Origin: Candidatus Micrarchaeota archaeon
GTDB lineage: Archaea; Micrarchaeota; Micrarchaeia; Norongarragalinales; WALN01
Length of the DNA: 35,117 nt
Reading direction: 5' to 3'
Assembly (NCBI GenBank): GCA_015522865.1
Contig: WALN01000064.1
Location: forward strand, 1-35,117
The notes beneath the pieces were generated by a model. The model was given only the letters and a program-made list of their open reading frames with translations, was not told the DNA's origin and ran no database searches. Below are positions 13,835 to 35,037 of this stretch, in pieces. The number at the start of each line of letters is the position of its first letter. Within the stretch, counting starts at the first letter, position 1. The position numbers and the translations under genes are program-made.

Positions 13835-14869
<1,035 letters not shown>

Positions 14870-14904
14870 TTCTCCCCAACAAAATAAAGTTAAGGAGTGA
14901 ATGC

Positions 14905-16122: not shown

Positions 16123-16287
16123 GATTCTACTGAAACCTATGGTTAAATCACAGAGAAATTGCTCCTATGATTTACGTGTTTTAAATACCGAGCTGATGGT
16201 TGTTGCAAATAGCAAAAGCTTATCCAGCGTTTATATTTATTAAATTTTCTGCACCAATTTATTTATCATTTATATTAACGCGATTAT

Positions 16288-17604
16288 ATGAAAATTATAA
16301 GACAGGCATATTACCTTCTTCTTGCTATAGTTTTTGTTCTGTTTGTTTATACCGTCTCCCTCCCAGTAGACAATGTTTTAAAGCTGTTGTTTGCTGTGGT
16401 TGAGCTGCTCAGCGCAAGCTACATACTCCAGCATTTGTTTAATTTTCAGCAGCAATACGGCATGCTTCTAATAAGAACAAAAAAAGGAGTACGTTTTGTA
16501 GATGTTGTTGCCAAAAAGTGGAAGAAATATTGGAAGTATGCGGTTGAGTTTGGTTTGGTTGCTGGCTTTGGGTTAATTTACGGCTATTTTGTGACCAAGA
16601 ATAAACGCAGATACGCAATATATTCTCTCATCACTCTTGTTTTCTTTGTGCTGATGGGATACTCTTTACTTCCTTCAGTACGGGCATTAAAGTTCTTAGT
16701 TATTGGCAGCGGTGCTGTTGGAGGTCTTTTTGGCTTTGGTTTATTTTTCATTCTATTTCAGGCCTTCAAAATTCTTACAATCCCAAATACGCCCGCTGGT
16801 ATCCAACCAGTTATACCGGGAACTGCGGGCTTCCCCTTTTTTGAGACCATAATTGCCATTATAATTATTGCAGTTACGCATGAACTTGCCCACGCAGTAA
16901 TTGCAAGAACCTGGAAAATAAAATTAAAATCGTTTGGTGCTCTTTTGTTCGGCTTCATCCCTGTTGGTGCATTTACAGAACCAGATGAAAAACAGCTTGA
17001 AAAATCAAATATCCAAGCAAGGAGAGAGGTGCTTGTTGCGGGAAGCACTGCAAACCTTATTTTCTTCCCGATTTTTATTTTACTGATGCTTCCGCTTGCT
17101 TTTCTCGCCTCGAGCATGGTTAATGGTGTGCAAATTCAAAATGTTGTTGCTAATAGCAGTGCTTCTAATGTATTGCATGAGGGAGAGCTAATTGTTTCAG
17201 TTAATGGAATTCAAATTAACAATACAAAAGATTTATCATATATTCTGAAAAATAAGAAAGAGGGCGATGAGCTGTTGGTAAAAACTGATGAAGGTATTAA
17301 AAAAATTATTTTAGGTAAGGGGGGGAAAATAGGCATATTTGTAAAAGAAGTTGTTTTACCTTCTAACAAATTCTTCTTTGCAATACTTTCATTTGTCGGC
17401 CGCATATTCTTCCTCTCAGCTCAACTTTCCTTTGCCTTAGCAGTTATTAATCTTCTCCCGCTCTTTATAACCGACGGCCATAGGATAATATTTGAAGAGC
17501 TGCGGGAAAAATTCGGCATTAAAAGAGCAGCAAAATATTCTGCGATAATCGGTATAATTACGCTCGCTATACTAGCATTGAATGCGCTCCCCTATTTCAC
17601 ATAG
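16288..17604 (+). CDS. Site-2 protease family (M50) intramembrane metalloprotease with PDZ domain
   Basis: HELAHAV (HExxH) in a TM region, a central PDZ-like segment, and a NLLPLFITDG motif near the C-terminus. Confidence 0.85.
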   Translation: MKIIRQAYYLLLAIVFVLFVYTVSLPVDNVLKLLFAVVELLSASYILQHLFNFQQQYGMLLIRTKKGVRFVDVVAKKWKKYWKYAVEFGLVAGFGLIYGYFVTKNKRRYAIYSLITLVFFVLMGYSLLPSVRALKFLVIGSGAVGGLFGFGLFFILFQAFKILTIPNTPAGIQPVIPGTAGFPFFETIIAIIIIAVTHELAHAVIARTWKIKLKSFGALLFGFIPVGAFTEPDEKQLEKSNIQARREVLVAGSTANLIFFPIFILLMLPLAFLASSMVNGVQIQNVVANSSASNVLHEGELIVSVNGIQINNTKDLSYILKNKKEGDELLVKTDEGIKKIILGKGGKIGIFVKEVVLPSNKFFFAILSFVGRIFFLSAQLSFALAVINLLPLFITDGHRIIFEELREKFGIKRAAKYSAIIGIITLAILALNALPYFT

Positions 17605-17673
17605 CTTGAGCTTAACGCCCCCCAAATATAAGAAAAGTTTTTAACTTCTTTCTCCCTATTCTCTTTAGGTTGT

Positions 17674-17961
17674 ATGAAAATAGAGATTTCTGGCCTTCCG
17701 AAAGGCGAAAAACTGTTTAAAGAGTCTATTCAGTATATCTGCGAAAAATCACTTTCAAAATTCGAATCTAGCATTAAATATTTCAAGCTGTATGTAAAAT
17801 CAATTCATGAGGGGCATGGCAAGAAAAAGTTTGAGTTAAACGCTCAGGTCGACCTTCTCAGGGGCCATTTCTCGGTTAGTATTGTTGACTGGGATATTTA
17901 TTTCGCTATAAAGAAACTGCTTAAAGAAGTGGAAGGCAAGCTAATTAAACTTAAAAAATAA
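17674..17961 (+). CDS. HPF/RaiA (ribosomal S30AE / sigma-54 modulation)-like protein
   Basis: 95 aa. MKIEISG.. start and DWDIYFAIKKLLKEVEGKLIKLKK end follow the HPF family pattern (..dlY.AID...dkLe.ql.k.k). Assigned by pattern only. Confidence 0.4.
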   Translation: MKIEISGLPKGEKLFKESIQYICEKSLSKFESSIKYFKLYVKSIHEGHGKKKFELNAQVDLLRGHFSVSIVDWDIYFAIKKLLKEVEGKLIKLKK

Positions 17962-18013
17962 ACTATCGAGTTAAAAAAGATGCAGTCTATTATTTAGTAA
18001 GGGGGTGTAAAAT

Positions 18014-18319
18014 TTGAATAAAAAAATTATGAGTTTAGTGATGGTCGTGATTGGACTTTGTGCTACCGCTCTCTTTGTTTATCAGTTGAATCAGTACATT
18101 TCCACAAGTGCAACGTTTGGGCCGACAATGTCCAAACTAAATTCCTTAGCAGACAATCCATCTTCGCTTGCGGCACTCGGGATGAGTGCATCTGACATTG
18201 AGGCAACCAAAAATATTATTTATGGAACTACCAGCGGTATCATGAACGCTGCTGTATTAGACGTTGTAATCGCAGTAGTTTTTCTCGCAGCTGGACTTTT
18301 GACTTATCCAAACAAGTGA
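18014..18319 (+). CDS. Small two-TM membrane protein (hypothetical)
   Basis: TTG start 6 nt after a GGGGGTG SD. Hydrophobic segments at both ends. Confidence 0.45.
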   Translation: MNKKIMSLVMVVIGLCATALFVYQLNQYISTSATFGPTMSKLNSLADNPSSLAALGMSASDIEATKNIIYGTTSGIMNAAVLDVVIAVVFLAAGLLTYPNK

Positions 18320-18415
18320 TTTCATGAAAAAGGAAATTCTTTAATCTTTTAATTTATTATAGCTGTGGTGATGAACTCTGTGGATATGCAGCCGTTTGGA
18401 AAGAGAAGTCTTAAT

Positions 18416-21400
18416 TTATTTTCCTTGTTGCTCCAGTTTAACATGAACTAGTTGCGAGCCCGCCTTAGTCATAGCTACCCCTATTAATGTATCTGCTTTT
18501 CTATATACGTCAAGATTGTGGGAAATCACTATAATTTGAGATTTATTTGATGCAAGTTTTTTTAATAATAGCGCGAGCTTGCGCGAGTTTTCGGGATCTA
18601 AAGCGGCGTCTGCTTCATCTAATATATAAATTGAAGAAGGATTGTACATTTGTATTGCAAGGATAAAAAGTAACGCGACCAGACTCTTTTCCCCCCCAGA
18701 CATGAGCTCTAGATATTTAATTGGTTTTCTTTCAAGTTTTATTTCCATAGTCAGCCCGCCTTCAAACGGTTGTTCTGGGTTTTCGAGTACCAGCGAGCCC
18801 TCTCCTGTAAAAATATGTTTAAATAATTTTTTAAAGTTTAAATTAAGGACGTCAAAAGTTTTCATGAAAGTGTTTGTTTTTTTAGTTTCTATTTCATTTA
18901 TTAAACCAATAACTGCTTCCTTTTCTCTCTCGAGTTGTTGCACCTGTTCAATCTGCGCTTCATACTGTTTCTTTTTTTCTTTAAACGCTTCTATCGACCT
19001 TAAATTTACCTCGCCTAAATCTGCGATTTTTCCTTCCAGTTCTTTTCTCTCTACGAATAGCTTCTCTTTTTTTTCGTTTATTATTTCTATAGACTCAAAC
19101 TCTTCGAATTCTGCTTTAAATATTGCAAGCGAGGATTCTAAAGACGCTTTTTCAGTTTCTAATTTGTGCAGTTCTCTTTCTATTTTCTCTTTCTCGAATT
19201 CTTTTTTGCCTTTTTCATTTCCAATTTTCGTTATTTGAGCGTCTATCTCTTCTCTCTGCTTAAAAAGCGATTGGAGTCTTGAGGAGATATTCTCCTGCTC
19301 TTTCTTTTTCTCACCCAGCTCCTTGGAGAGTTCTTTTATTCTTTCTTTATGCTCTTTAATTTCTTTAGATTTAGCTTCAATTTTTTTCATCGATTCTTCG
19401 AGGTTTTTCTTCAAATTTTTTATTTGTTTAATACGCATTTCATATGAATTGCCCAAAGATTTTATTTCGCTCTCCAATTCAACAATTTTGATTTTTAATT
19501 CAGACAAGTTTTTTTCTTTCTCCTTTATCTGCATCCCAAGCGTTTTTTCTTTTTCTACGTCCACATATTGCCTCGCGTCTACCAATTCTACATTTATCTT
19601 AGAGATTCTACGCACCAATTCATTTCTTTTTTCGTCCATTTTCTGTATATTCTCTTCAAGTTCTTTCACTTCTTCCATTGCTTTTCCAATAGCCTGCTTC
19701 AAATTATATTTTTTCTCCTCATCTTCAAGTTCTTTCTTATTTAAGTGCTCTAGCTCCAGCTCCTTTGACTTGCTTTCTATTTCTATCTTTGCCTTTTCTT
19801 TTCTTTTTTCTCTAATGCCTTTGTTTAGCTCGGCAACTTCTATTATTAATTTTTGCTTCTCTTCCTTATATTTTTCTATTTTTGCCTTCAACTCTTCCAT
19901 TTTTTTTTCTGCTCTAAGCGGATCAAAAATTACTGTTTTCCTACCGCCGCTTATTACGCCCGATTTTTCTACTATTTCTCCTTCTAATGTAACTATCCTT
20001 ACTTTATTTGCAAATTTTTTTGCTTCATTGATATTTTCTACTATAAGCGTGTTGGCACATGCATATTCAAAAGCTTTAGAAAATTTTTTGTCAAATTTTA
20101 AAATGTCCACTACATAGTCTATTGCCCCCTTTTCTCTTAGTAGCTTCTTGTCTCTCGCGTTTATGTAATAGAGCTTGTCCAATGGAATAAAAGACGCCTG
20201 TCCGCCCTTCTTCTTGAGAAATTCTACTGCTCTAATTCCGTCGTCAAATCTCTCTGCTATAAAATAATCTAAACGTTTTCCAAGTGCGGCCTCGACAGCT
20301 AACTCATACTTCTGGCTATAACTACACAAATTGTAAAGGGGCCCATTTATTCCTTTAAGCTGCCCTATCTGTTTGTATAAGTTTATTTTTTCGCTTCCTT
20401 TTTCTCCATAAGCTTTTACTCTAGCATTTAGGTTCATTATTTCTTCTCTTACGTTCAGAATGAGGTCTTCCAATATGCCTATCCTTCCATTTATTTCTTC
20501 AATTTTTTTATTATCTTCTTCAATTCCCCTTTCCAGCTTTTCATAATTTCCTTTTAAATCTTTCATTTTGTTTTCAATAGCTTTTTTTTGGATAGAATAA
20601 TCTTCCACTCTTCCTATTCTTAGCCTTTCAATTTCATCTCTTTTAACTCTTTTTACTTCGTCAAGTTTGCTTATTTCTCCCTGAATCTCAGCGAGGGCTT
20701 CCTTAGTTTTAATCATTTCTTCATTCAGTACTTCTATTCTCTTTTTAGATTCAAAATATTTACTCGAGAATTTCTCCGAAGCTTCCGTAATTTCTTTTAA
20801 TTCATTTCTTTTATTTTTTAGTATTTCCTGCACGCTATGAAGCTCCTCCTCCTTTTCCTTTTTTTGCTTTTCTAATGCCCTGCTTTCTTCTTCTATATTT
20901 TTCAGTTCTATACCCTCTTCTCTTTGCTTAGTTTCTGCTTCTTCTATTTCTTCTTTATCGTGCTTTATCATCGTTTGTCCTTCGCTCATCTTGCTGCTCA
21001 GCGTATCTATTTCTTTCTGAAGTTCTATTTCTCTATTCTGGCCCTTTTCCGAAATTATTTTGTTTATCTCATCTTTCTGTTTTTGTTTTTGCTTGATATT
21101 CTCTTCCAACTTACTGATTTCTTCTTTTAATTTAGAGGAGGACTCGCTAAATCCTTCCATTTTCTTCTCCGCACTTTTTAACTTGTCTTCCGTGTTTTTC
21201 AGGTCGCCATAAATTAAACTCCCTTTTACTTTTTTGAGCTGTTCCTGCAACTTAAGATAGCTTTCAGCATTTTCCTTTTCTCTTTCCAGTTCTTCTAGGT
21301 ATCCTTTTCTTTCTGAGAGTATAGCGGACGCACTGTTTAATTTGTCCTCCACTTCTTTTAGCTTTTCATACGCTTCTTTTTTCTTCTGCTCGTATTCAGC

Positions 21401-21847
21401 GACGCTAGCTACCTCATCCACCAACGCCCTTCTTTCTTTTGGGCTCATTTCAACTATTTTTTGAACTGCTCCCTGCATAATTACGTTGTTGGTTGATAGC
21501 CTATGAGCTGCGAGAAAATCATCAATAACATATTTTTTTACTCTTTTTCCGTCAAGGTAATAATTTTGATTCCCCTTTCTTTGGATTGTTCTTTCTATAA
21601 CATGTGATGGATTCTCGAAATAAAGGGTAACACTTGAAACCTTTGAATTTTTGAATGTTAAGTCAGAAGCTTTTTTGGCTCTTAGCTGCTTCATGCTACT
21701 TTCTCCAAAAGCAAAAAGGGTAGCATCCACTATATTAGATTTGCCGCTGCCATTAGGCCCAACTATGCTGTTAAACCCCTCCCTAAATACCAATTGCGCG
21801 TTTTTAAAAGACTTAAAATTGTGCAGTTTTAGCTTACTTATAAACAT
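18416..21847 (-). CDS. smc: Chromosome segregation protein SMC
   Basis: 1143 aa with Walker A GPNGSGKSN, long coiled coils, a central hinge, the LSGGEKSLVALLF signature and Walker B ILDEADAALD. Confidence 0.95.
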   Translation of the reverse strand: MFISKLKLHNFKSFKNAQLVFREGFNSIVGPNGSGKSNIVDATLFAFGESSMKQLRAKKASDLTFKNSKVSSVTLYFENPSHVIERTIQRKGNQNYYLDGKRVKKYVIDDFLAAHRLSTNNVIMQGAVQKIVEMSPKERRALVDEVASVAEYEQKKKEAYEKLKEVEDKLNSASAILSERKGYLEELEREKENAESYLKLQEQLKKVKGSLIYGDLKNTEDKLKSAEKKMEGFSESSSKLKEEISKLEENIKQKQKQKDEINKIISEKGQNREIELQKEIDTLSSKMSEGQTMIKHDKEEIEEAETKQREEGIELKNIEEESRALEKQKKEKEEELHSVQEILKNKRNELKEITEASEKFSSKYFESKKRIEVLNEEMIKTKEALAEIQGEISKLDEVKRVKRDEIERLRIGRVEDYSIQKKAIENKMKDLKGNYEKLERGIEEDNKKIEEINGRIGILEDLILNVREEIMNLNARVKAYGEKGSEKINLYKQIGQLKGINGPLYNLCSYSQKYELAVEAALGKRLDYFIAERFDDGIRAVEFLKKKGGQASFIPLDKLYYINARDKKLLREKGAIDYVVDILKFDKKFSKAFEYACANTLIVENINEAKKFANKVRIVTLEGEIVEKSGVISGGRKTVIFDPLRAEKKMEELKAKIEKYKEEKQKLIIEVAELNKGIREKRKEKAKIEIESKSKELELEHLNKKELEDEEKKYNLKQAIGKAMEEVKELEENIQKMDEKRNELVRRISKINVELVDARQYVDVEKEKTLGMQIKEKEKNLSELKIKIVELESEIKSLGNSYEMRIKQIKNLKKNLEESMKKIEAKSKEIKEHKERIKELSKELGEKKKEQENISSRLQSLFKQREEIDAQITKIGNEKGKKEFEKEKIERELHKLETEKASLESSLAIFKAEFEEFESIEIINEKKEKLFVERKELEGKIADLGEVNLRSIEAFKEKKKQYEAQIEQVQQLEREKEAVIGLINEIETKKTNTFMKTFDVLNLNFKKLFKHIFTGEGSLVLENPEQPFEGGLTMEIKLERKPIKYLELMSGGEKSLVALLFILAIQMYNPSSIYILDEADAALDPENSRKLALLLKKLASNKSQIIVISHNLDVYRKADTLIGVAMTKAGSQLVHVKLEQQGK

Positions 21848-22091
21848 ATGGAGGTATAAGGAAAGATAATTTATTATACATTTTCCTTTACTATTTCAGT
21901 GGTAGCGACCTCCCCCCCACATTTTGTTTTTAAACAAGCGGTGCCGACTTAATTGGTGATAGCATGAAAATAGACGTAAGTACGCTTTCGTATCGCGAAG
22001 CAGCCGGCTTGATAAAAAACACAAAGAGAGAAATTACCGGTTTTTCAAAAGTAAATAATACTGTTTTTTTATTTTTTTGATTTCTATTTTT

Positions 22092-22727
22092 TTATATACT
22101 CTTTGTGGGTGGTTGCTGCTCTTCTCTCAGAATTATACTGATAAATTTCCATATAGATGTTGCAAGCGGAGTATTTGAAACAACACCATAAATTTTATTT
22201 TTGCTTTTAATCTGCCCTGCAAGCCCCTTTATTCCTATTGGTGCTTCTGATACTATTTTGATAAGCAAAAATGGTTTTCTGCATAAAATGATCAACGAGT
22301 TTTTGTCCGAGAAGAGTATATAGTATTTTATCTTTTTAGTTACAAGCACATGAAGAACCCTGGCGCGGATTACTTCTAATGAAAGCTCAGTATCTATTTT
22401 ATTTTTGGCTTTTTTCGAGAGCGAGTTTTTTACATAGAATAAACATAGCCAGTAAACCACCATATAAACGAAAAGAGGGATAAAAATTGCTACTAGTAGT
22501 AGTGCTACCTTTCCATAAAGTCCAAATTTATTTGCAAGCTCAACATACATGAAGGCGGAAAAAAATGCAACGATTAATATAACTATTGCTTTGCCTTCAA
22601 AACTTTTCAATTTTAGAAGCAATTTTGAAATTAACTCCGCTGCTTTCATATTATTACCACTTAAAACATTAATAAAAACATAACTATTAGCTGAAACAAT
22701 GGGTAGGAATAAAAAATTATTCTTCAT
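22092..22727 (-). CDS. Membrane protein, hypothetical (start uncertain; internal ATG at 22649 is possible)
   Basis: Three hydrophobic helices followed by a soluble C-terminal domain. The first 26 codons would overlap the likely tRNA-Gln promoter region. Confidence 0.45.
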   Translation of the reverse strand: MKNNFLFLPIVSANSYVFINVLSGNNMKAAELISKLLLKLKSFEGKAIVILIVAFFSAFMYVELANKFGLYGKVALLLVAIFIPLFVYMVVYWLCLFYVKNSLSKKAKNKIDTELSLEVIRARVLHVLVTKKIKYYILFSDKNSLIILCRKPFLLIKIVSEAPIGIKGLAGQIKSKNKIYGVVSNTPLATSIWKFISIILREEQQPPTKSI

Positions 22728-22848
22728 GTTTTATTTATAGTCCCGTAGTCTAGTGGCCAAGGATGACAGGCTTTGGACGAAGCTCTCTTTTTCTTGTAAG
22801 AAAAAGAGACCTTCAGGAGAGAAAAAGAACGGGTTGTAGAAGACCTTC

Positions 22849-22912
22849 AGGAGAGAAAAAGAACAAAAATGAAAGAAGAACTTCTTGATGCAGCTTCTTT
22901 CTAAGAAGCTGC
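22849..22912 (+). repeat. 64-nt intra-intron direct repeat, copy 1
   Basis: aggagagaaaaagaacaaaaatgaaagaagaacttcttgatgcaGcttctttctaagaagCtgc is 62/64 identical to 23027-23090. The shorter repeat gaccttcaggagagaaaaagaac also occurs at 22808-22830 and 22842-22864. Confidence 0.9.
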
Positions 22913-22960
22913 TTTGGAACATCTTAGTACTTTCTTTCTTCTTAAGAAAGAAAGGACCAG
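22912..22960 (+). repeat. 49-nt module shared with the tRNA-His downstream repeats
   Basis: ctttggaacatcttagtactttctttcttcttaagaaagaaaggaccag matches 34938-34986 and 35038-35086 at 47/49 positions. Confidence 0.9.
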
Positions 22961-22990
22961 CACCTCTCTTAAAAAGAGAGCTGCACCAGA

Positions 22991-23025
22991 GAACTTCTTG
23001 ATGCAACTTCTTTCTAAGAAGTTGC
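22991..23025 (+). repeat. Partial (35-nt) third copy of the hairpin part of the 64-nt repeat
   Basis: gaacttcttgatgcaacttctttctaagaagttgc is identical to 23056-23090. Confidence 0.9.
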
Positions 23026-23026
23026 T

Positions 23027-23090
23027 AGGAGAGAAAAAGAACAAAAATGAAAGAAGAACTTCTTGATGCAACTTCTTTCTAAGAAGTTGC
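23027..23090 (+). repeat. 64-nt intra-intron direct repeat, copy 2
   Basis: See copy 1. It differs only at 23071 (A versus G22893) and 23087 (T versus C22909), which are the two partners of one stem base pair. Confidence 0.9.
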
Positions 23091-23170
23091 GGAGAAACCT
23101 GTAGACGCCGGTTCGAATCCGGTCGGGACTATTTAAAGAATAATGGTGAAATAATATAGGTGAGATTGAA

Positions 23171-23359
23171 TTGGGCAGAGTAAAAGGAGTTATGATTAGA
23201 AAAACGGCTGAGGTCTTACTTAAGAAATTGGAGTTTTCTTCTGATTTCGATTACAACAAGAAGAAACTTAAAGAAGTACCCGGCCTTAATAGTAAACTAT
23301 TCAGAAATAAGATAGCTGGCTATATAAGCAAAAAACTGCATAATGAATCAAATGTTTAA
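23171..23359 (+). CDS. rps17e: Ribosomal protein S17e
   Basis: xGRVKGVMIRKTAEVLLKKL.. matches the S17e N-terminus. The first codon of the open frame is ATT, directly after an in-frame TGA at 23168-23170. GGTGA SD at 23160-23164. Confidence 0.8.
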   Translation: MGRVKGVMIRKTAEVLLKKLEFSSDFDYNKKKLKEVPGLNSKLFRNKIAGYISKKLHNESNV

Positions 23360-24837
23360 TACTGCCTGGCTACGTAGACTTTATATCTAGCTGGCTTTCC
23401 GCATATTATGCATTTTTCATTAGTTTTTTCTATTTTTGTTAAATTAGTTGAACTCGTGTTTGTGTCTGCAATTATTCCCCTTACTTTTGCTCTAGTTTTT
23501 TCCTGCAGCTCAGCAGCGCATTTTTCTCCCTCTTTTTCAATAGAGCAAAACGGCACTTTTGCTATGCCTTTGTTATCCAATATTTTTTCAACTTCTTCCA
23601 AGCTATGCGCTTCAATTATGTGCTCTGAAAAATATTTTTCTGCCCTTTTTTTCAACCTCAGGTCAAAAGAATTTAGTTCTCTTTTTATTGCTCCCACTAT
23701 CTCCTCTTCCTTTACTCTTATTTTCTCCTTGTTGTCTCTAAAGACTACGGTCATTTCCTTTTGCGCTACCTCTTTTTCTCCTATTTCTATTCTTATCGGC
23801 ACTCCCAGCATTTCCCATTTGTTGAATTTGAATCCGGGGGTTTTTTCTGAGCTGTCCACCTTAGCGGATATACTTTCCTTCTCCAGTAATTTTTCTGTTT
23901 TGGCGCATCTGCTTAAAACTTCTTTTTTGTTTTTTTCTTTAAAAATAGGTATAATTATTACTTTTAGTGATGCGACAGAAGAAGGTAAAATTAACCCCTT
24001 TTTATCTCCGTGAATACTCACTATTGCTGCAAGTATCCTCCATACGCCCGGCCCAAAACAGGTCTGATAGACATATTTTGCCTCTCCCTTTTTGCTTCTA
24101 TATTTTATATTGAACGGTTTTGAGAAGTTTTGGCCAAGCAGATGCGTGGTTGCAATTTGCAACACTTTTCCATCCGGCATCAGAATATCGTATGCAAATG
24201 TTTTCTCAGCGCCCGGGAAGGTGTCCCAATAGGGTCTTTGAAAAACTAAGAACGGAATTTGCAATTTATTTTTAAAAATTTTTTCAGTGATTTCCATATC
24301 TTTTTTAACTTGTTTGACCGCCTCCTCGCTGCTTGCAAAAACATCATGAGTCTCTATCCACAAAAACTCTTTGCCTCTTAAAAATGGTGCAGGTTCTTTC
24401 TCGTTTCGGAATACAGAGCAGGACTGAAAGAATTTGAAAGGCAGTTGAGACTCTTCTCTGAGCCAGAGCGAATACATTTTATAAAACGCAGTTTCGCTTG
24501 TTGGTCTCAGAAAAAGCTTTCTTTCCAATTTTTCACTGCCGGCTTCTGTAATCCAAAATACCTCCGGGATAAAACCTTCCAGATGTTCTTTTTCTTTTTC
24601 TAAATTCTCCTCTGGTATAACCGTGGGAAATAGAACTTGCTCATGAGCATCTTTTTTTAGCTCGCTCTCAAAAAATGCATATATTTTATTTAGGATGAAC
24701 ATCGCTCTTGGCTTGTGGACTATAAACCCTTTCACATTATATCTGTTGTCTGCCAAATCTGCCGCATAAATTATAGTGTTGTACCACTCTGAAAAATTTT
24801 TCTCTTTATCAATATCAAACTCTCTTTTTTCCATCAT
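23356..24837 (-). CDS. proS: Prolyl-tRNA synthetase, archaeal/eukaryal type
   Basis: FSEWYNTII.., class II motifs (FRNE.., TCFGPG), an anticodon-binding domain, and a C-terminal zinc-binding extension ending ..CIICGKPARYKVYVARQY. Confidence 0.95.
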   Translation of the reverse strand: MMEKREFDIDKEKNFSEWYNTIIYAADLADNRYNVKGFIVHKPRAMFILNKIYAFFESELKKDAHEQVLFPTVIPEENLEKEKEHLEGFIPEVFWITEAGSEKLERKLFLRPTSETAFYKMYSLWLREESQLPFKFFQSCSVFRNEKEPAPFLRGKEFLWIETHDVFASSEEAVKQVKKDMEITEKIFKNKLQIPFLVFQRPYWDTFPGAEKTFAYDILMPDGKVLQIATTHLLGQNFSKPFNIKYRSKKGEAKYVYQTCFGPGVWRILAAIVSIHGDKKGLILPSSVASLKVIIIPIFKEKNKKEVLSRCAKTEKLLEKESISAKVDSSEKTPGFKFNKWEMLGVPIRIEIGEKEVAQKEMTVVFRDNKEKIRVKEEEIVGAIKRELNSFDLRLKKRAEKYFSEHIIEAHSLEEVEKILDNKGIAKVPFCSIEKEGEKCAAELQEKTRAKVRGIIADTNTSSTNLTKIEKTNEKCIICGKPARYKVYVARQY

Positions 24838-24924
24838 GCATTAATATATGCTCCAATATTTAAAAAACTAGAGATGCCCTACTCTCTGCGAAATCTATAA
24901 ATTTGGCAAAGAACATAGACATTT

Positions 24925-25860
24925 ATGAAACTATTTGGGAAGAGGCGCGTAGAGCTAGAACAATTGAAAGGCCGAAGAACGCCGCAAAATATCGCGCTTA
25001 GAGCAGTGATGAGGAAATCTCCCGAAGTTGCAAAGAGATTTTTAGATGCGCTCAGTGAAAGCCAATATAAAAAATTTGAAAAACTTGGAACGCGCTATGT
25101 GAGATTTTTGGTCTACAAAAAAAGAGAGATTCCCCCAGAAGCGCTTAAAAATGTGCTTTACGGGAGGGAACTCTCAGATGAAGAGAAAGAAAGAATAAAG
25201 AAAGGATATGAATGGTATCTTACACATTTTACAAACAAATCCCCAGAAATTAGAAAAAGATTAGTCGAGGAGGCTATGGAACACACCAGATATTTTAGCG
25301 CCGCAGAGCCTTTTTTCTTCGGTCCTCATTCAGTTCCAAATATTCGACACAAAAAACTGGAAATTGAAAGGATAAAGAAATGGGGGTTATACCCCGACTA
25401 TGGCATGGTGCGGCGCAATATGTTTTATCAAACGGACGTTATATCTTTACACAAAATCCCATTCGAAGCCATTTCAGCTCATGAATTCTATCATTTTAGA
25501 GCCATGGGTCAAAATCTTAATTCTGAGATTACTGCCAACGCCATCACTACTTTTTTAGCGAGGAGAAGGCTGTTTTCTCCTTCGCTCAAAACAAAACTAA
25601 TTATAACTTTAAATCGCCTAAAAATTTTGAAAAATATTCCGTATAGCGCGCATAATGCTTTCCTCTATTTAGTAGGCCAAAAAGTGGGATATATAGCTCA
25701 AAAATTTGAAAGAAAAAAAGAGGGCCGGGGAGTAGCATTTATGAGATTTCTTGATAGAAAAATGAGAGAAAAGTTCAAAAGTGAAAAGGAAATTACGCCC
25801 GCAATTTTCGACAGTTTTCTAAAAAGCTCTCTAAGAGGATTTAAAAATACTGGCTCCTAA
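24925..25860 (+). CDS. Basic hypothetical protein with an HExxH motif (AHEFYHF)
   Basis: 311-aa ORF. The single HEFYH string is a possible zinc-metallopeptidase motif. I recognise no family. Confidence 0.5.
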   Translation: MKLFGKRRVELEQLKGRRTPQNIALRAVMRKSPEVAKRFLDALSESQYKKFEKLGTRYVRFLVYKKREIPPEALKNVLYGRELSDEEKERIKKGYEWYLTHFTNKSPEIRKRLVEEAMEHTRYFSAAEPFFFGPHSVPNIRHKKLEIERIKKWGLYPDYGMVRRNMFYQTDVISLHKIPFEAISAHEFYHFRAMGQNLNSEITANAITTFLARRRLFSPSLKTKLIITLNRLKILKNIPYSAHNAFLYLVGQKVGYIAQKFERKKEGRGVAFMRFLDRKMREKFKSEKEITPAIFDSFLKSSLRGFKNTGS

Positions 25861-25888
25861 TCGTTATGTTTGCTGTCGGTGTAGTTAT

Positions 25889-26103
25889 ATGAAAGTAGTG
25901 ATTATTGGAGCCAGTCCGGCACTCTTCTTTATGCCCCCGAGATCAAATTCCACGCAATAGAAGTATCGGTAAATGCTGACATGCAGACGCCTGTGAAGGG
26001 ACTCTATGCAATAGGAGATGGGGCAAGAGTTTCTCGCGGTATTGTTACTGCCGCAGCAAGCGGCTTGTTAGCTGCCCAGTCCATTAACTCCGAAAAATAT
26101 TAA
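25889..26103 (+). pseudogene. Remnant of an FAD-dependent dehydrogenase: N-terminal dinucleotide-binding stub fused out of frame to the C-terminal ~50 codons
   Basis: Frame 1 reads MKVVIIGASPALFF.. then stops at 25958-25960. A shifted frame reads ..APEIKFHAIEVSVNADMQTPVKGLYAIGDGARVSRGIVTAAASGLLAAQSINSEKY-stop (26101-26103), typical of the C-terminal FAD-binding GD motif region. Confidence 0.5.
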
Positions 26104-26133
26104 TAAGTAATTTACCATTATATTACTGATACC

Positions 26134-26991
26134 ATGTTTAGACCTCAAGAGCACATAAAATTGGTAAAATCAGAAATGAGAGCTAATGAACAGTTGCGCA
26201 ATATTCTTAAGAAGCATAAAGAAGACTTAGTTTTGGGGCGATTTAATATAGAGAGCGCTTATCCCAAAGCTAACCTGCCCGAAAGAAAAAGTTTGGCAGG
26301 TAGGCTTAAGTACAATTTTGTGGTTCACCTGAGGAAATTGAGGAATCGAGACCTGAGAGAGCTATTTGAAAAAGTTGGAGACCTGAAAAAAATGAACAAA
26401 ATTGCAAGAAAAAAATTAGTGCCTTTAATTAAAAAAGAAGGAAAGGAATATCTCCGGTCCAGGAAGGAAAAAATCAAGACTCAAAACTTCAAGCAAGCTT
26501 TAGACGAGATAGAAAATATTAAAAAAGAAAATAAGAAGGCGGTTGAAGATAAAATAAAAGAGTTGGAGGAGCGCAATAAATATTTAAACCAATATCTATC
26601 TCATCTAACCTCTATTTCTATTACTTCCTCTGGCGGAGCTTCTTTTGAAGATGTTTTAGGCAATCTAAAAAATAAGAATAAACAATTACTTCGTGAATTA
26701 GAGAAACATAAGAGCAAGGTAGATTCTCTTAAAGAGGCGCTTAATGCGGCCGAAGCGGATGCGCGCTCTGCAAAGAAAGAAAGGGAAAAGTTGTTAAAAG
26801 AAAGAGAGAAGCTAAATAAACAAATATTGCAGCATCAAAAAAGGGTAGAGGAGCTTGCTCACCAACTCAACGTCTTGTTGAAGCTGGCCCCCCAGAAAGA
26901 GCTTAAAAAAAGAATAATTAACAAAGAGCTGCTACCACTGCTTAAAAATATAGAGAAGGCGAAGGCAAAACCGCCGAAACGCAAAAAATAA
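26134..26991 (+). CDS. Lys/Glu-rich coiled-coil protein (hypothetical)
   Basis: 285 aa with heptad-like charged repeats and a basic tail KAKAKPPKRKK. Confidence 0.5.
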   Translation: MFRPQEHIKLVKSEMRANEQLRNILKKHKEDLVLGRFNIESAYPKANLPERKSLAGRLKYNFVVHLRKLRNRDLRELFEKVGDLKKMNKIARKKLVPLIKKEGKEYLRSRKEKIKTQNFKQALDEIENIKKENKKAVEDKIKELEERNKYLNQYLSHLTSISITSSGGASFEDVLGNLKNKNKQLLRELEKHKSKVDSLKEALNAAEADARSAKKEREKLLKEREKLNKQILQHQKRVEELAHQLNVLLKLAPQKELKKRIINKELLPLLKNIEKAKAKPPKRKK

Positions 26992-27267
26992 CTACTTCAT
27001 ATATACCGGCATACATTCCTCTGCTTGGCATTTACAGCCTGCGATGTTATATTCTTTTCTACAATCTGTGTTGCACGTTTTATTCTCAACATCTTCTGGT
27101 CTCTGTCCTTTGGTGTAGCATTTACAGTCGCATAAGCTCAAAGAACAATTTTTGAAAGAAGTGCATTTGTTGGCATTTGTTTTGCCAGCGGGATATTCTA
27201 TAATTATTGCAATAATTGATATTAGTACTATCACTCCTATAATTATACCTATCAAATATTTTTTCAT
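26992..27267 (-). CDS. Small membrane-anchored cysteine-rich protein (10 Cys in about 60 extracytoplasmic residues)
   Basis: N-terminal TM LIGIIIGVIVLISIIAIII, then CTSFKNCSLSLCDCKCY...CNTDC...CKCQAEEC. ATGA overlap with the ileS stop. Confidence 0.5.
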   Translation of the reverse strand: MKKYLIGIIIGVIVLISIIAIIIEYPAGKTNANKCTSFKNCSLSLCDCKCYTKGQRPEDVENKTCNTDCRKEYNIAGCKCQAEECMPVYMK

Positions 27268-30263
27268 TTGCTCACTCTGCTAAAGCGCGCATTTATCTCG
27301 ACATTCTCAAATTTTGCGTTTGCTTCAACTTCTCCGTTAAGTATGCCTATATCTATTTTTTCTGCCCCAACAGTTTTAGCAATTTCTTCCTTCCTTCTCT
27401 CAAAAAGTTCCTGAATTTTTTCGTTTGACCTTAAAGTTAAATTTATTTTCTCCTGTACTTTAAATCCATTTTTCTTCCTTGCCTCTTGGATTGCTCGGGT
27501 AGTTTCTTTTATTATTGCTTCTTCTTCGCATTCCTTATCCAGCTGATTGTCTATAAATATCGTGCCCCCTTCAAATTCTGCTTTGGTAAATTTTTCCTCG
27601 TCTACCTGCTCTTTAACAATTTCGACTTTTTTAACATTCGCGAGTTTTCTTATAGTATCTTCCACTTCCTCTAAGGGGCGTTCTTCCACTTCATTTAATT
27701 TTATTATTGCTCTTGGTATTGGCCATCTCAACCTTAATTTAGCCTTCTGCCTTGCGCTCATAATAGCTTCTATTATTTTTGCCGCCCTCTCCATTTTTTC
27801 TTCTAATTCTAAATCTATTAACGTATCATCCGCTTCTGGATACAGTTCAAAATGTATCGATTCTAAATTCAAATTATTGTCTATCTCCTTAAGTTTGCTG
27901 TAAATATATTCTGAGATAAATGGAGTTATAGGGGCGAGTAGTTTAGCAGTTGAAAGCAAACAATAATTAATCGTATTAATACATTTGCTTTTGCTTTCAT
28001 CTTTTGAGTGTATATCCATTCTGTCTCTTACTAATTTAATGTATGTTCTCGAAAATTTATCATTTACAAATTTTATTATTTCTCTGCCTGCTTTATGAAA
28101 TTCGAAATTCTCTAAATGCTTTGTAACTTTTTTAGTCAGCGAATTATTTGCTGAAATTATCCATCTGTCCTCTACCGGATACTCTTTCATATTTTCTATT
28201 CCTTCTGGTTTGATTTCTCCCCTGTAGTTTGTATAAAATTCCAAAATATTAAGCAAAATATTTAAAGATTTTTTAACTTCTTTTGCCCTTGAGAAACTAA
28301 ATCTCTGCACTTCAGATGGCGGGACCTCAAAAGAGAAGTAGAGGCGTATAGTGTCTGCTCCTAGCTTTTCTATTCCTTCCAATGCACTTATTACATTTCC
28401 TCTGCTCTTGCTCATTTTTTCCCCATTTTCATCAACAACCCACCCCATCATTGCAACATTTTTATATGAAGGGATATCAAAGGTAGCTATACCGTAGAAC
28501 ATTAGAGCATAGAACCATCCTCTTATCTGGTCCTGCGACTCGTTTATTAAATCAACTGGAAATAATTTTTCGAACAGCTCCTTATTTTTATATGGGTATC
28601 CCATAGATGCCCACGGAGAAATGCCGGAATCAAACCACACATTGAAAATGTCTTTTACTCTATGCATTGTCCCTCCACATTCATCGCATTTGAGTTCTAT
28701 TTTGTCTATGTTGTGCCTATGCAGGTCGTTAATATCTTTTGGAGCGTTAATTGCTTTTTTTAGCAGCTCTTCCTTGCTACCAATTACTTCTGTTTTACCG
28801 CACTTGTCGCAGACCCATATAGGCATGGGAATGCCCCAATACCTCTGCTGCGATATACACCAATCTCCAGAACCCTCAAGCCAGTTCGCAAACATCTCTC
28901 TCCCGGACTCAGGCATCCAGTTGACTTTTTTGTTTGCTTCGATCATTTTTTGCTTTATCGGCTCAATCGAAAAATACCATTGTTTGCTCATCCTAAATAT
29001 TAATTTGCTCTTGCATCTCCAACATAAAGGATAGCTGTGTACTATTGTCTCTTCTCTCAATAACTTATTCTCCTTTTTAAGCAATTCTATTATCTCTTTA
29101 TCTGCATCCTTAACAAATACTCCTTCAAATCGCTTCACTTTCTCAGTGAATCTTCCTTTTTCATCAACTGGCGATACAGCAGGCAGGCCGTAGTGTTGGC
29201 CAACTAAATAGTCAGTTGCCCCATGTCCCGGTGCACAGTGCACTATCCCGCTTCCCTCATCCATAGTTACGAACTCTTCAAATTCTTCTTTTCCTTCTTC
29301 GCTCTCCTTCATTTTGTGTTTTTTATACTGTTTTTTCTTCATTATTGAGATGCTTAAATAGATTTTATGGGCTTTTTCTCCGAGCTCTTTTTGCTGTTCT
29401 ACATCTAAGAGAGGCTCGTATTCCATTCCATCCAATTCTACTCCCTTAAACTTTTTTACTATTTTATATTTCGTATCTTTGAGTACTTCTGGCACTCTCT
29501 TTGCTCCAAGTATATAATATTCTTCGCCCACTTTCACTTTTACATACTCTTCCTTTGGATGAACAAAAAGAGCTACATTTGCAGGCAGGGTCCATGGCGT
29601 TGTAGTCCAGACTATAAAATAAGTTTTTTCTTCTCCTTTCACTTTAAATTTTACAAATACGCTAGGATCTTCTACATCTGTATAGCTATCGCTTACTTCA
29701 TAGCCACTTAACGCTGTTTCGCAGTGAGGGCACCAATATATTGGCTTTTCACCTGCATACAGCATAGATTTTTCATGCAATTTCTTCGCAGTCCACCAAC
29801 CACTTTCAATGTAGTAGTCCTTATATGTAAGATAAGGAGCAAAGAAGCCCCTCCACGCCCCGAGTTTTTTGTAGTATCCCAGCCACGCGCTCTCATTATT
29901 TCTTACTTTCTCAAGGCATTTCTTGTCGAACTCTTCTATACCTATTTTTTCTTCTATATCTGATTTTGAAGTAATGCCTAACTCCTTTTCAACTGCTACT
30001 TCTACTGGCAGGCCGTGGCAGTCAAAACCGGGTTGTATAAATGTGCTGTATCCCTGCATATATTTGAAGCGCGTCCAGATGTCCTTGTATGTTGTTGTTT
30101 TTACATGCCCTACGTGGGGGGTTCCATTCACATATGGCGGGCCATCTAGCAGAAAAAATTTTTTCTTCCCCTTTCTCCTCTCTTCCAGCTTTCCCGCTAT
30201 ATCCTCTTTCATCCAGTACTCTAAAACTTCTTTTTCTATCTTTTTTGGGTCGTAGTATACCAT
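27264..30263 (-). CDS. ileS: Isoleucyl-tRNA synthetase
   Basis: Class I HIGH (PHVGH) and KMSKS motifs, a CP1 editing domain, and Cys-pair zinc motifs (CWRCKS, CDKCG, CDECGG). Confidence 0.95.
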   Translation of the reverse strand: MVYYDPKKIEKEVLEYWMKEDIAGKLEERRKGKKKFFLLDGPPYVNGTPHVGHVKTTTYKDIWTRFKYMQGYSTFIQPGFDCHGLPVEVAVEKELGITSKSDIEEKIGIEEFDKKCLEKVRNNESAWLGYYKKLGAWRGFFAPYLTYKDYYIESGWWTAKKLHEKSMLYAGEKPIYWCPHCETALSGYEVSDSYTDVEDPSVFVKFKVKGEEKTYFIVWTTTPWTLPANVALFVHPKEEYVKVKVGEEYYILGAKRVPEVLKDTKYKIVKKFKGVELDGMEYEPLLDVEQQKELGEKAHKIYLSISIMKKKQYKKHKMKESEEGKEEFEEFVTMDEGSGIVHCAPGHGATDYLVGQHYGLPAVSPVDEKGRFTEKVKRFEGVFVKDADKEIIELLKKENKLLREETIVHSYPLCWRCKSKLIFRMSKQWYFSIEPIKQKMIEANKKVNWMPESGREMFANWLEGSGDWCISQQRYWGIPMPIWVCDKCGKTEVIGSKEELLKKAINAPKDINDLHRHNIDKIELKCDECGGTMHRVKDIFNVWFDSGISPWASMGYPYKNKELFEKLFPVDLINESQDQIRGWFYALMFYGIATFDIPSYKNVAMMGWVVDENGEKMSKSRGNVISALEGIEKLGADTIRLYFSFEVPPSEVQRFSFSRAKEVKKSLNILLNILEFYTNYRGEIKPEGIENMKEYPVEDRWIISANNSLTKKVTKHLENFEFHKAGREIIKFVNDKFSRTYIKLVRDRMDIHSKDESKSKCINTINYCLLSTAKLLAPITPFISEYIYSKLKEIDNNLNLESIHFELYPEADDTLIDLELEEKMERAAKIIEAIMSARQKAKLRLRWPIPRAIIKLNEVEERPLEEVEDTIRKLANVKKVEIVKEQVDEEKFTKAEFEGGTIFIDNQLDKECEEEAIIKETTRAIQEARKKNGFKVQEKINLTLRSNEKIQELFERRKEEIAKTVGAEKIDIGILNGEVEANAKFENVEINARFSRVSK

Positions 30264-30311
30264 GGCTTTATTTATCTCTTAAAATTTAAAATGTTTGCTT
30301 CTGCACTTTCT

Positions 30312-31595: not shown

Positions 31596-31712
31596 GTTAC
31601 CACACAAATTATGAATTAGTTATTTAAATAATTGATTAGGCAACTAATAATTTCCCTGTTTATATTTTGTGCAGCGCAGTTAATTATTTAACTAAAATTT
31701 AAGTAATGGAAT

Positions 31713-33185: not shown

Positions 33186-33191
33186 TTTCAG

Positions 33192-34906: not shown

Positions 34907-34937
34907 CTTAGCTCTCATTCTATTCTTAGCATTCTTT

Positions 34938-34986
34938 CTTTGGAACAACTTAGTACTTTCTTTCTTTTTAAGAAAGAAAGGACCAG
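34938..34986 (+). repeat. 49-nt shared module, His repeat unit 1
   Basis: ctttggaacaacttagtactttctttctttttaagaaagaaaggaccag is 47/49 identical to 22912-22960. Contains an 11-bp hairpin at 34956-34980. Confidence 0.9.
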
Positions 34987-35037
34987 TTCGAGTCTCGGTC
35001 GCCGCCCTTAGCTCTCATTCTATTCTTAGCATTCTTT

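Follow-up and report, generated by a model that had tools for sequence, protein, structure and literature searches.

A 320-nt, hairpin-rich candidate intron at position 37/38 of an archaeal tRNA-Gln(UUG) gene, apparently enlarged by module duplication

What separates the two halves of the tRNA-Gln(UUG) gene in this contig of an uncultured, DPANN-type archaeon, and could a tRNA still be spliced from it? In the window (the whole stretch of 35,117 nt that was analyzed), the exons and the intervening sequence are arranged as follows.

22739 to 22776, plus strand: tRNA-Gln(UUG) exon 1, positions 1-37 (acceptor 5' strand, D arm, 5' strand of the anticodon stem, C32 to G37)
22777 to 23096, plus strand: 320-nt intron at site 37/38, given as i(38,320) by ARAGORN -i
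23097 to 23131, plus strand: tRNA-Gln exon 2, positions 38-73 (3' strand of the anticodon stem to acceptor 3' strand)

After joining of the exons, ARAGORN returned a 73-nt tRNA-Gln(ttg) with every stem intact, including a 7-bp acceptor stem, a 5-bp anticodon stem, a TTCGAAT T-loop, and the pair A1-U72, which is typical of archaeal tRNA-Gln. Exon 2 provides a 4-nt variable loop, the T arm, and the discriminator A; CCA is absent from the gene. The exon coordinates and the textbook cloverleaf proposed in an earlier note on this DNA were thus confirmed. The same holds for the insertion at the canonical position 37/38, since the relaxed-length search proposed there, performed as ARAGORN with long introns permitted, reports the 320-nt intron. 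Because A22777 equals A23097, the intron boundary can be moved by 1 nt. At other loci, the long-intron calls of ARAGORN were mostly chimeras of neighboring bacterial tRNAs, and such a call alone is therefore not evidence. A split, trans-spliced tRNA of the Nanoarchaeum type was considered and rejected: the halves share one strand with 320 nt between them and show no long leader/trailer complementarity.

The insert, or at least its length, might stem from mis-joined short repeats. Internal repeats of 36-64 nt are open to miscounting, and other assemblies break within the intron, the ENA scaffold in hairpin 1 and a Logan contig in hairpin 6 (hairpins are described below). Breaks at palindromes and repeats are, however, what k-mer assemblers would give. 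Contig JALTDX010000041.1 of assembly GCA_027007975.1 covers positions 14765-23935 of the window, its 5 SNPs all lying outside the tRNA and the intron, and ENA scaffold_1718 matches 22800-23096 exactly (297 nt). As the locus is identical in a second assembly and, over 297 nt, in an ENA scaffold, it is not a single-assembly artefact, and we consider mis-assembly extremely unlikely.

Archaeal tRNA introns range from 11 to 129 nt, and their medians lie at 12-25 nt (2014 review, PMC4090602). With 320 nt, the tRNA-Gln intron is approximately 2.5 times as long as the longest one in that review, in line with the initial claim that it far exceeds the usual size. The claim that it holds no credible open reading frame also stood: no ORF on the plus strand of the intron exceeds about 45 codons, and a 91-aa ORF on the minus strand is of low complexity and had no homologues when its translation was used to find related repeats annotated elsewhere as genes by mistake. 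Size and location in the anticodon loop would be compatible with another intron class, either a small self-splicing group I intron or a guide-RNA intron like the C/D intron of archaeal tRNA-Trp. Group I, C/D, and H/ACA models were, however, unmatched even at E ≤ 10 (the group I core, Intron_gpI, across 22650-23250). Rfam searches of the intron at E ≤ 10 gave spurious miRNA-hairpin matches only, and snoRNA model matches scored far below the gathering level. Even with one mismatch allowed, neither strand of the intron contains a C-box; its sense strand is free of CUGA, and H/ACA features are missing too. The sequence consists of low-complexity perfect hairpins. The probability of another intron class is, in our view, close to negligible.

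The intron type common in archaea is recognized by a bulge-helix-bulge (BHB) at the exon-intron junctions. The elements of this motif at the tRNA-Gln locus are listed here.

22766 to 22770, plus strand: BHB helix h, ACAGG (5' strand of the anticodon stem); pairs with CCTGT at 23098-23102, 5 of 5 pairs standard
22771 to 22774, plus strand: 5' strand of the central helix H, C32 U33 U34 U35; pairs with GGAG at 23091-23094
22775 to 22777, plus strand: bulge of the 5' splice site, G36 G37 / A (GGA); unclosed by h', giving a junction or loop of the hBH/BHL type
23091 to 23097, plus strand: 3' strand of H, GGAG (23091-23094), and bulge of the 3' splice site, AAA (23095-23097)

Helix H consists of the pairs C22771:G23094, T22772:A23093, T22773:G23092, and T22774:G23091 (CG, UA, UG, and UG), and is weak on account of its two G-U pairs. 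Pairing and bulges are as first described; the 3' bulge comprises two A residues of the intron followed by A38 of exon 2. A junction scan yielded h = 5, H = 4, and h' = 0, which agrees with the relaxed BHB lacking an outer intron helix that had been drawn before. The locus thus departs from the strict hBHBh' form (two 3-nt bulges, a 4-bp helix, h and h') by the missing h' and conforms to the relaxed hBH/BHL form, in which a single proper bulge is accompanied by a 4-bp helix correctly registered for both cuts. Cuts after G37 and before A38 would lie 2 nt into each of the 3-nt segments beside H. Hairpin 6 adjoins H directly, its 3' arm being contiguous with the 3' strand of H, and can stack on H as a surrogate for the missing h'. 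The BHB fold (-127.4 kcal/mol) is predicted to be 4-8 kcal/mol less stable than the optimal folds (-131.3 and -135.6 kcal/mol); folding is unreliable as a BHB test, because the same program misfolds even the mature tRNA. A scan for nested or stepwise splicing motifs returned 53 BHB-like motifs, compared with a shuffle mean of 42 and a maximum of 69, so that such motifs are not enriched over shuffled sequence.

The tRNA-Gln intron resembles canonical 37/38 BHB introns, for which EndA is the endonuclease and RtcB the ligase, in its site, its complete exons, its non-coding sequence, and the 3-4-3 geometry of the 3' side, where nucleotides 32-35 pair with the 3' end of the intron. It differs from them in its length of 320 nt, the lack of h', and a body made of duplicated perfect hairpins. 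The ORF-less BHB introns of archaeal rRNA genes, which can be processed and circularized at lengths of several hundred nucleotides, are mostly closed by a long helix; the tRNA-Gln intron interrupts an anticodon loop and lacks such a helix. Similar in junction architecture are the hBH/BHL introns of ARMAN-2, Candidatus Micrarchaeum acidiphilum (PMC3239211, PMC12397907), which likewise combine one good bulge and a 4-bp helix with a looped second site. The epsilon2 endonuclease of ARMAN-2 cleaves relaxed hBH substrates in vitro (PMC3239211). ARMAN-2 apparently belongs to the phylum of the host, and 53/54 introns are present in both (in tRNA-Pro of ARMAN-2 and in tRNA-His here). The tested ARMAN-2 substrates had introns of 13 and 25 nt, whereas the 'loop' of the tRNA-Gln intron comprises about 300 nt. 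No tRNA_int_endo domain was found within the window.

Alternatively, the locus might be a dead gene, namely a tRNA-Gln copy that was broken by repetitive hairpin DNA and stays unspliced, with a functional tRNA-Gln(UUG) encoded elsewhere. The repeats within the intron are very young (97-100% identity), so the intact exons prove no function, and both the absence of h' and a BHB that is not the predicted optimum would fit a dead gene. Moreover, non-functional tRNA-His 3'-end copies nearby show that debris gathers at the tRNA genes of this genome. The insertion, however, is located exactly at 37/38, one of about 72 possible sites, and the end of the intron can pair with nucleotides 32-35 in precisely the register of a BHB; by our arithmetic, four allowed H pairs in this register have a chance of about 0.02. 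The locus is also free of polymorphism between two assemblies that differ elsewhere. Heavy CAA usage points in the same direction: the Gln codons of the window comprise 120 CAA and 103 CAG, and a UUG tRNA is required because CAA is the commoner codon. To our knowledge, archaeal genomes, above all the small ones of DPANN, nearly always carry one gene per anticodon, which also counts against a dead gene. The tRNA-Gln(UUG) gene is probably the working copy of the organism, and we regard a dead gene as unlikely.

The body of the intron is a mosaic of direct repeats, with 64-, 36-, and 24-nt copies of 97-100% identity.

22807 to 22830 and 22841 to 22864, plus strand: 24-nt direct repeats, two perfect copies of AGACCTTCAGGAGAGAAAAAGAAC
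22849 to 22912, plus strand: 64-nt repeat, copy 1 (purine box, spacer, and hairpin 2)
22990 to 23025, plus strand: 36-nt partial repeat that holds hairpin 5, 100% identical to 23055-23090 (blastn)
23027 to 23090, plus strand: 64-nt repeat, copy 2, which ends in hairpin 6

The purine box AGGAGAGAAAAAGAAC, contained in the 24-nt repeats, recurs at 23027-23042. The two copies of the 64-nt repeat are identical except for 23071 and 23087 of copy 2, which pair with each other and change together from G-C to A-U. A compensatory substitution together with a matched T/A insertion was also found in a paralogous hairpin, in the contig with the diverged last unit of the tRNA-His array (see below). Such compensatory changes in palindromes may come from hairpin-templated DNA repair and not only from selection at the RNA level. 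Judged by its repeats, the intron is a young mosaic that was recently expanded by module duplication, a feature unnoticed in the earlier note. Six hairpins are embedded in this mosaic.

22779 to 22814, plus strand: hairpin 1, type I, an inverted repeat; 15 bp, -15.9 kcal/mol, z = -4.2
22890 to 22912, plus strand: hairpin 2, GCAGCTTCTT TCT AAGAAGCTGC; 10 bp, -13.5 kcal/mol
22927 to 22957, plus strand: hairpin 3; 11-13 bp
22960 to 22984, plus strand: hairpin 4, a type I relative, GCACCTCTCTT AAA AAGAGAGCTGC; 10 bp
23003 to 23025, plus strand: hairpin 5; 10 bp
23068 to 23090, plus strand: hairpin 6; 10 bp

All six hairpins that had been predicted are present, each with z = -2.8 to -4.5 relative to shuffled sequences. 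The 15-bp hairpin said to open the intron was recovered as well: hairpin 1, with the layout GAAG-C-TCTCTTTTTCT / AGAAAAAGAGA-C-CTTC, begins 2 nt past the 5' splice site. The description of the arms as all-pyrimidine and all-purine applies to the hairpin cores, whereas both purines and pyrimidines occur on each side of the outer pairs (GCAG/CTGC, GAAG/CTTC). The 3' arm of hairpin 4 is a perfect 12-nt complement to the 5' arm of hairpin 1. A K-turn or L7Ae site beside UGAUG-flanked hairpins was discarded on inspection, the flanks of the three copies being inconsistent with such a site.

Such an array could have been selected for a job of its own after splicing and circularization, possibly as a stable, structured circular RNA that acts as a scaffold or regulator or as a sponge for proteins or ribosomes. 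The local structure is strong (folding z = -6.9 for the whole precursor and -4.4 for the intron alone), compensatory changes keep the hairpins in three paralogues, SD-like AGGAG boxes are repeated, and the purine box mirrors the purine arm of hairpin 1. However, a palindrome of pyrimidines followed by purines reads alike on both strands and therefore carries no strand information; the antisense strand is equally structured (z = -8.0), as plain palindromes predict. The architecture resembles recent duplication and not a conserved design. Homologous sequences were also missing: the intron module pattern gave 0 matches in 185,579 species genomes, both this pattern and a tRNA-His 3'-end pattern gave 0 matches in viral contigs, and plasmid and phage sequences yielded no blastn match to the intron. 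The idea, raised in the earlier note, that the excised circular intron has its own function found no support, as it matches no Rfam family and has no C/D or H/ACA features, and a selected function seems improbable to us. Duplicated modules, one of them in common with the tRNA-His locus, point to expansion or selfish spread rather than to a designed structured RNA.

The connection with the tRNA-His locus involves the following features.

22912 to 22960, plus strand: 49-nt module with hairpin 3, 47/49 identical to 34938-34986 and 35038-35086
34784 to 34906, plus strand: tRNA-His(GUG), G-1 encoded, with a 50-nt insertion at 53/54 (34837-34886)
34887 to 35117, plus strand: tandem array beside tRNA-His (TRF: period 100, 2.3 copies, 100% match)

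The 49-nt module and the tRNA-His spacers, 12 kb apart, are 96% identical (blastn, E = 2.6e-18), with a local alignment score of 88 versus a shuffle maximum of 26. Further copies of the module were not detected by blastn in the window beyond the two tRNA loci. Rfam scored the tRNA-His as a tRNA with 35.4 bits and a 57-nt insert in the T-loop; the spliced form is a clean tRNA-His, and the insertion holds a type-III hairpin, CTTTCTTT/AAAGAAAG. Each unit of the array consists of the 21-nt tRNA-His 3' end and a 79-nt spacer containing the shared module. The array reaches the contig end, and another contig has an identical end. In a third contig, the last unit of the array is diverged and followed by unique DNA.

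A non-autonomous mobile element, MITE/PATE-like or the remnant of an integrating element, might have landed in the anticodon loop. This would account for a module at 96% identity in two tRNA loci and for the att-like duplication of tRNA-His 3'-end segments, and tRNA-Gln 3' halves have been duplicated by integrating elements in other archaea, as seen at a metagenome locus. On the other hand, the intron ends lack terminal inverted repeats, the target duplication is only 1 nt (A/A), and according to blastn a copy of exon 2 is found neither inside nor beside the intron. There is no integrase or cargo gene nearby, no other copy of the module in the remaining 34 kb, and no match in viral, plasmid, or phage collections. 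An att-type test of the tRNA-His locus revealed a repeated 3' segment, but the spacers are only 79 nt long and housekeeping genes lie beyond. We therefore rate a mobile element as very unlikely. In the model derived from Caldiarchaeum, integrating elements disrupt tRNA genes, and duplication of tRNA fragments is tied to intron gain (PMC3293823). Duplicated tRNA fragments adjoin a tRNA gene here, too, in the form of the tRNA-His 3'-end array. Unlike in that model, recombinase and cargo are missing, the units are tandem, identical, and 100 nt long, and the tRNA-Gln locus shows no exon duplication.

Near-identical introns are described at different tRNA genes and positions within single genomes of Thermoproteales (Fujishima et al., 2010, as cited in PMC4090602 and PMC3239211), which implies that intron-derived sequence moves between tRNA loci. 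Compared with these Thermoproteales intron clusters, only a 49-nt sub-module is shared in the present case, the lineage is DPANN, and the shared module at the tRNA-His locus sits in spacers between copies of the 3' exon and not within a demonstrable intron. The hairpin modules might even constitute an unrecognized self-propagating family specific to tRNA splice junctions of this DPANN lineage, a proposal that we consider doubtful. Copying within and between tRNA genes would proceed perhaps by reverse splicing or by template switching at palindromes. The modules would be harmless because a permissive endonuclease excises them, and the outcome would be the giant tRNA-Gln intron and the 3'-exon arrays of tRNA-His. 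The 320-nt circle might then sequester ribosomes or proteins through AGGAG boxes or triplex-capable hairpins.

Taken as a whole, the data favor, with a probability of roughly 0.7, a genuine endonuclease-spliced intron that swelled as its modules were duplicated; the host would be a Micrarchaeota-like lineage whose splicing endonuclease has broad specificity. Complete exons, the exact 37/38 site, and the in-register helix H argue for an endonuclease-type intron. The tRNA-His intron at 53/54, a non-canonical site, lends indirect support by analogy, as it suggests permissive splicing machinery. The weak H, the absent h', the non-optimal BHB fold, and a T5 run within the intron (at 22788) count against splicing; on the sense strands, 87 T5 runs compare with 294 A5 runs, so T5 is under-represented yet clearly tolerated. 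The lineage assignment is consistent with ProRS, whose closest homologue is 58% identical and whose best named relatives are Micrarchaeota. Among these relatives, a tRNA-Gln gene is located beside ProRS, and it is an intron-less tRNA-Gln(CUG).

From the sequence we infer the following route. The gene would be transcribed into a single precursor of roughly 400 nt, in which each module would fold as a local hairpin, keeping pyrimidine and purine tracts off the tRNA body and compacting the intron. Nucleotides 32-35 (CUUU) would pair with the GGAG that shortly precedes the 3' splice site, thereby forming h, the AAA bulge of the 3' site, and the 4-bp helix H. The 5' site, GG/A, would lie in the junction beyond H, with hairpin 6 stacked on H in place of h'. 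A broad-specificity endonuclease, either an epsilon2 or an (alpha-beta)2 enzyme, would dock on the well-formed half and cut both sites at a fixed distance across H. The tRNA ligase would then seal the exons and circularize the intron, as with other archaeal introns, the bulk of the intron presumably being tolerated baggage rather than functional RNA.

When 22778-23067 are removed in silico, the 30 nt of intron that remain, A + hairpin 6 + GGAGAA, form a strict hBHBh' motif with the exons. The locus can thus be described as an ordinary intron plus about 290 nt of inserted hairpin modules. These duplicated modules would have entered between the 5' bulge and h' of the ancestral 30-nt intron; some would have been copied from the original hairpin, and the tRNA-His locus shares one of them. 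Our best reading is that the tRNA-Gln intron represents a giant, module-duplicated form of the known archaeal endonuclease-type tRNA intron.

If spliced, the intron would extend the size range known for endonuclease-type tRNA introns to about 2.5 times its present upper limit and imply that a relaxed half-BHB suffices even with a 'loop' of about 300 nt. It would also provide a test case for the way in which broad-specificity endonucleases measure their substrates. With its internal duplications, compensatory changes, and shared module, it offers a rare view of an intron in mid-growth and bears on the long-debated origin and spread of tRNA introns and of disrupted tRNA genes. A degenerate pattern of tRNA-Gln exon 1 gave 0 matches in 185,579 species genomes, so that among these representatives the exon is not shared by any close relative. 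A metagenome scan with a 22-mer from exon 2 retrieved mostly bacterial tRNA-Glu, together with about a dozen archaeal tRNA-Gln genes, which had introns of 0, 16, about 21, or about 61 nt and no long intron. The tRNA-Gln gene analyzed here was overlooked by ARAGORN with default settings and at the Rfam gathering threshold. Since default tRNA finders miss such a gene, essential tRNAs of DPANN archaea may be scored as 'absent', which would skew completeness estimates and decoding inferences.

The exons 22739-22776 and 23097-23131 of the window, an entire contig of 35,117 nt with a G+C content of 36%, join into a 73-nt tRNA-Gln(UUG) in ARAGORN, with a perfect 7-bp acceptor stem, a 5-bp anticodon stem, the T-loop TTCGAAT and A1-U72. 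The exon boundaries and clean cloverleaf proposed in the earlier note were thus reproduced. The search with relaxed intron length that it had suggested recovered the gene with a 320-nt intron when ARAGORN was allowed long introns; neither default ARAGORN nor Rfam at the gathering threshold detected it. Because the long-intron mode gives many chimeric false calls across bacterial tRNA clusters, the assignment rests on the complementarity between the halves, the absence of further tRNA-like sequence between them, and the exact 37/38 site. CAA slightly exceeds CAG among the glutamine codons of the window ORFs (120 versus 103), so a UUG tRNA is needed.

At the junction, CUUU (nucleotides 32-35, 22771-22774) pairs with GGAG (23091-23094) as C-G, U-A, U-G and U-G to form the central helix H; by our own arithmetic, four allowed pairs in this exact register have a chance of ~0.02. 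On the 3' side of H, the bulge A-A-A38, with the splice site before A38, leads into the anticodon stem. The 5' side reads G36-G37-A, with the splice site before the A, and is followed by no intron-intron helix in the motif scan (anticodon-stem helix h = 5, H = 4, outer helix h' = 0). The junction is the relaxed hBH/BHL form. The earlier note had drawn the same central helix and 3' AAA bulge, had failed to find an outer helix, and had placed a hairpin 2 nt past the 5' splice site, all of which we see; this is hairpin 1. Since the 3' arm of hairpin 6 is contiguous with the 3' strand of H, this hairpin can stack on H at the usual h' place. Removal of 22778-23067 leaves a 30-nt intron (A, hairpin 6 and GGAGAA) with a strict hBHBh' motif, which would be the ancestral form, the other 290 nt being additions.

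The best explanation, to which we give a probability of about 0.7, is that a broad-specificity endonuclease, anchored on the well-formed 3' half, splices the precursor in cis; this and everything else beyond the sequence facts we infer. The enzyme would anchor on h-B-H and cut the 5' site at a symmetric distance across the 4-bp helix, after which the exons would be ligated and the intron circularised. When the cloverleaf is the sole constraint on folding, CUUUGG prefers CCAGAG at 22985-22990 as its partner. At 22911-22918 and 22985-22993, the intron also holds a copy of the octamer GCTTTGGA of the anticodon loop and 5' junction, and ACCAGAGAAC, which resembles the 3' junction GGAGAAAC. Such sites may act as decoys for pairing or be left over from duplications of the junctions.

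The at least six hairpins announced in the earlier note are present: six fold at -10 to -16 kcal/mol (z = -2.8 to -4.5), and the entire precursor reaches z = -6.9. Folding is just as strong on the antisense strand (z = -8.0), a necessary property of palindromes. Judged by its sequence, the intron is a young mosaic of the following repeats:

22849-22912 and 23027-23090, plus strand: 64-nt unit (purine box, spacer, hairpin), copies 97% identical
22990-23025, plus strand: 36-nt partial copy, 100% identical to 23055-23090
22807-22830 and 22841-22864, plus strand: 24-nt unit, two copies, 100% identity

The 64-nt copies differ solely at 22893/23071 (G/A) and 22909/23087 (C/T), which are partners in one stem pair (G-C to A-U); two random substitutions would pair in this way with an estimated chance of ~0.002. 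Repeats this young would suit a recently disrupted pseudogene, a reading we consider unlikely, as both the insertion exactly at 37/38 and the complementarity within H would then be coincidental. Under the splicing model, the modules would fold locally, keeping long purine/pyrimidine tracts off the tRNA body and the ends together, and the intron would have grown by duplication of segments near its own 3' junction. A function of the excised RNA, although compatible with splicing, is doubtful, having no positive support besides the structure. Nothing so far points to a new function or mechanism.

The purine box AGGAGAGAAAAAGAAC occurs in three copies (within 22798-22830, 22849-22864 and 23027-23042). 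It holds an exact 12-nt mirror image of the hairpin 1 purine arm (chance roughly a few per cent), the layout that H-DNA or a purine-motif (R*R-Y) triplex within one molecule requires. Both 64-nt repeats carry an SD-like AGGAG and, ~15 nt on, an ATG opening an 11-codon ORF that ends in the hairpin loop (22850-22904, MKEELLDAASF; 23028-23082, MKEELLDATSF), probably by coincidence.

Could the insert be an assembly artefact? This is very improbable, being contradicted by three assemblies. JALTDX010000041.1 (GCA_027007975.1) spans 14765-23935; it differs there by five SNPs, of which one falls in SMC and four fall in ProRS, and is identical over the tRNA-Gln and complete intron. ENA scaffold_1718 matches 22800-23096 exactly and ends inside hairpin 1, and a Logan contig is interrupted in hairpin 6; k-mer assemblers break at palindromes and at 36-64-nt repeats. 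The intron sequence is real, and the repeat copy number alone is slightly uncertain.

Another intron class can be practically dismissed, as tests for its defining features came out negative: Rfam, including group I, C/D and H/ACA models, gave no family match even at E <= 10, and the intron holds no C-box within one mismatch. No ORF lies on the sense strand, and the one of 91 aa on the antisense strand is without homologues, in keeping with the earlier note. Insertion of a mobile element is highly unlikely, its hallmarks being absent: we found neither terminal inverted repeats nor a target duplication at the intron, no similar DNA in viral contigs, species genomes, plasmids or phages, and no integrase or transposase among the window genes.

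Within the window, copies of intron modules occur at one other tRNA locus and nowhere else:

34784-34906, plus strand: tRNA-His(GUG), encoded G-1, 50-nt insertion at 53/54 (T-loop); found by Rfam, missed by ARAGORN
34887-35117, also 1-230 of a GCA_027007975.1 contig (L002) and 3540-3650 of an ENA scaffold (L001): perfect 100-nt tandem array, last 21 nt of tRNA-His plus 79-nt spacer

Without the insertion, tRNA-His forms a clean cloverleaf. Its bulge-helix-bulge is poor (CCC/GGG plus a G.A mismatch, h just 2 bp). A 53/54 intron site is known in Micrarchaeum ARMAN-2 (PMC3239211); in vitro, the epsilon2 endonuclease of this archaeon accepts strict as well as relaxed (hBH) substrates for cleavage (PMC3239211, PMC12397907). 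The array terminates two independent contigs, the window and L002. In L001 it is collapsed, and the last diverged unit, with the T-loop TTCAAAT, ends in TTCAAATCTCGGTCGCCGCCC before unique housekeeping DNA. A 49-nt spacer module matches intron 22912-22960 at 47/49 positions (E = 2.6e-18; score 88 versus a shuffle maximum of 26), with weaker similarity for ~20 nt more. In the hairpin of the diverged unit, a U-A pair is replaced by C-G in a compensatory manner, and there is a matched T/A insertion; compensatory changes at the two loci may reflect a local-folding requirement or hairpin-templated DNA repair. The same duplication tendency would here have extended across the exon boundary, and the array copies may be remnant att sites, decoys or alternative 3' exons.

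In its proposed mode of working, the Gln intron resembles archaeal introns of the relaxed ARMAN-2 type, from which it differs in having an abutting hairpin in place of h' and in being built from modular repeats. Known archaeal tRNA introns measure 11-129 nt (PMC4090602), whereas this one has 320 nt; those of the archaeal tRNA-Gln genes recovered from metagenomes measure 0-61 nt. The module common to another tRNA locus is reminiscent of the Thermoproteales intron-similarity clusters. The intron is a genuine outlier that holds promise for work on intron growth and has a practical consequence for tRNA annotation.

ARAGORN also missed or miscalled two archaeal tRNA-Gln(CUG) genes from metagenomes, in which the D-loop is interrupted by introns of ~61 nt (Ga0315286_10423261) and ~21 nt (Ga0265296_1022840); in the former intron, a pyrimidine run (CCCTTTTCC) pairs with a purine run (GGAAAATGG), as in the window intron. 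In OBEQ010072776.1 (7043-7963), an archaeal tRNA-Gln(UUG) has a 3'-half copy 900 nt downstream, and both copies flank a ribbon-helix-helix-like gene, a textbook att duplication of an integrated element, in contrast to the Gln locus of the window.

The window genes are archaeal housekeeping genes, among them S17e, archaeal-type ProRS, IleRS, HisRS, SMC and a glycolysis block; no splicing endonuclease is encoded in the window. The closest ProRS homologue shows 58% identity, and Candidatus Micrarchaeota supply the named matches that score best. The host therefore belongs to an isolated DPANN lineage, probably within or near Micrarchaeota. Adjacency of tRNA-Gln and ProRS is common to three Micrarchaeia relatives, with an intron-less tRNA-Gln(CUG) after ProRS. 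The three aminoacyl-tRNA synthetase genes of the window (ProRS, IleRS, HisRS) are grouped between tRNA-Gln and tRNA-His (23356-34700), HisRS lying 3 kb from tRNA-His. Two adjacent convergent paralogues of ~500 aa each (31713-33185, plus strand; 33192-34700, minus strand) have an uncharacterised N-terminal 400 aa and are recognisable solely by a C-terminal PEP-utilizers mobile domain. The intron contains one T5 run (22788-22792). On the coding sense strands of all ORFs, A5+ runs outnumber T5+ runs 3.4-fold (294 versus 87), which fits the idea that this organism avoids oligo-T terminators to some degree.
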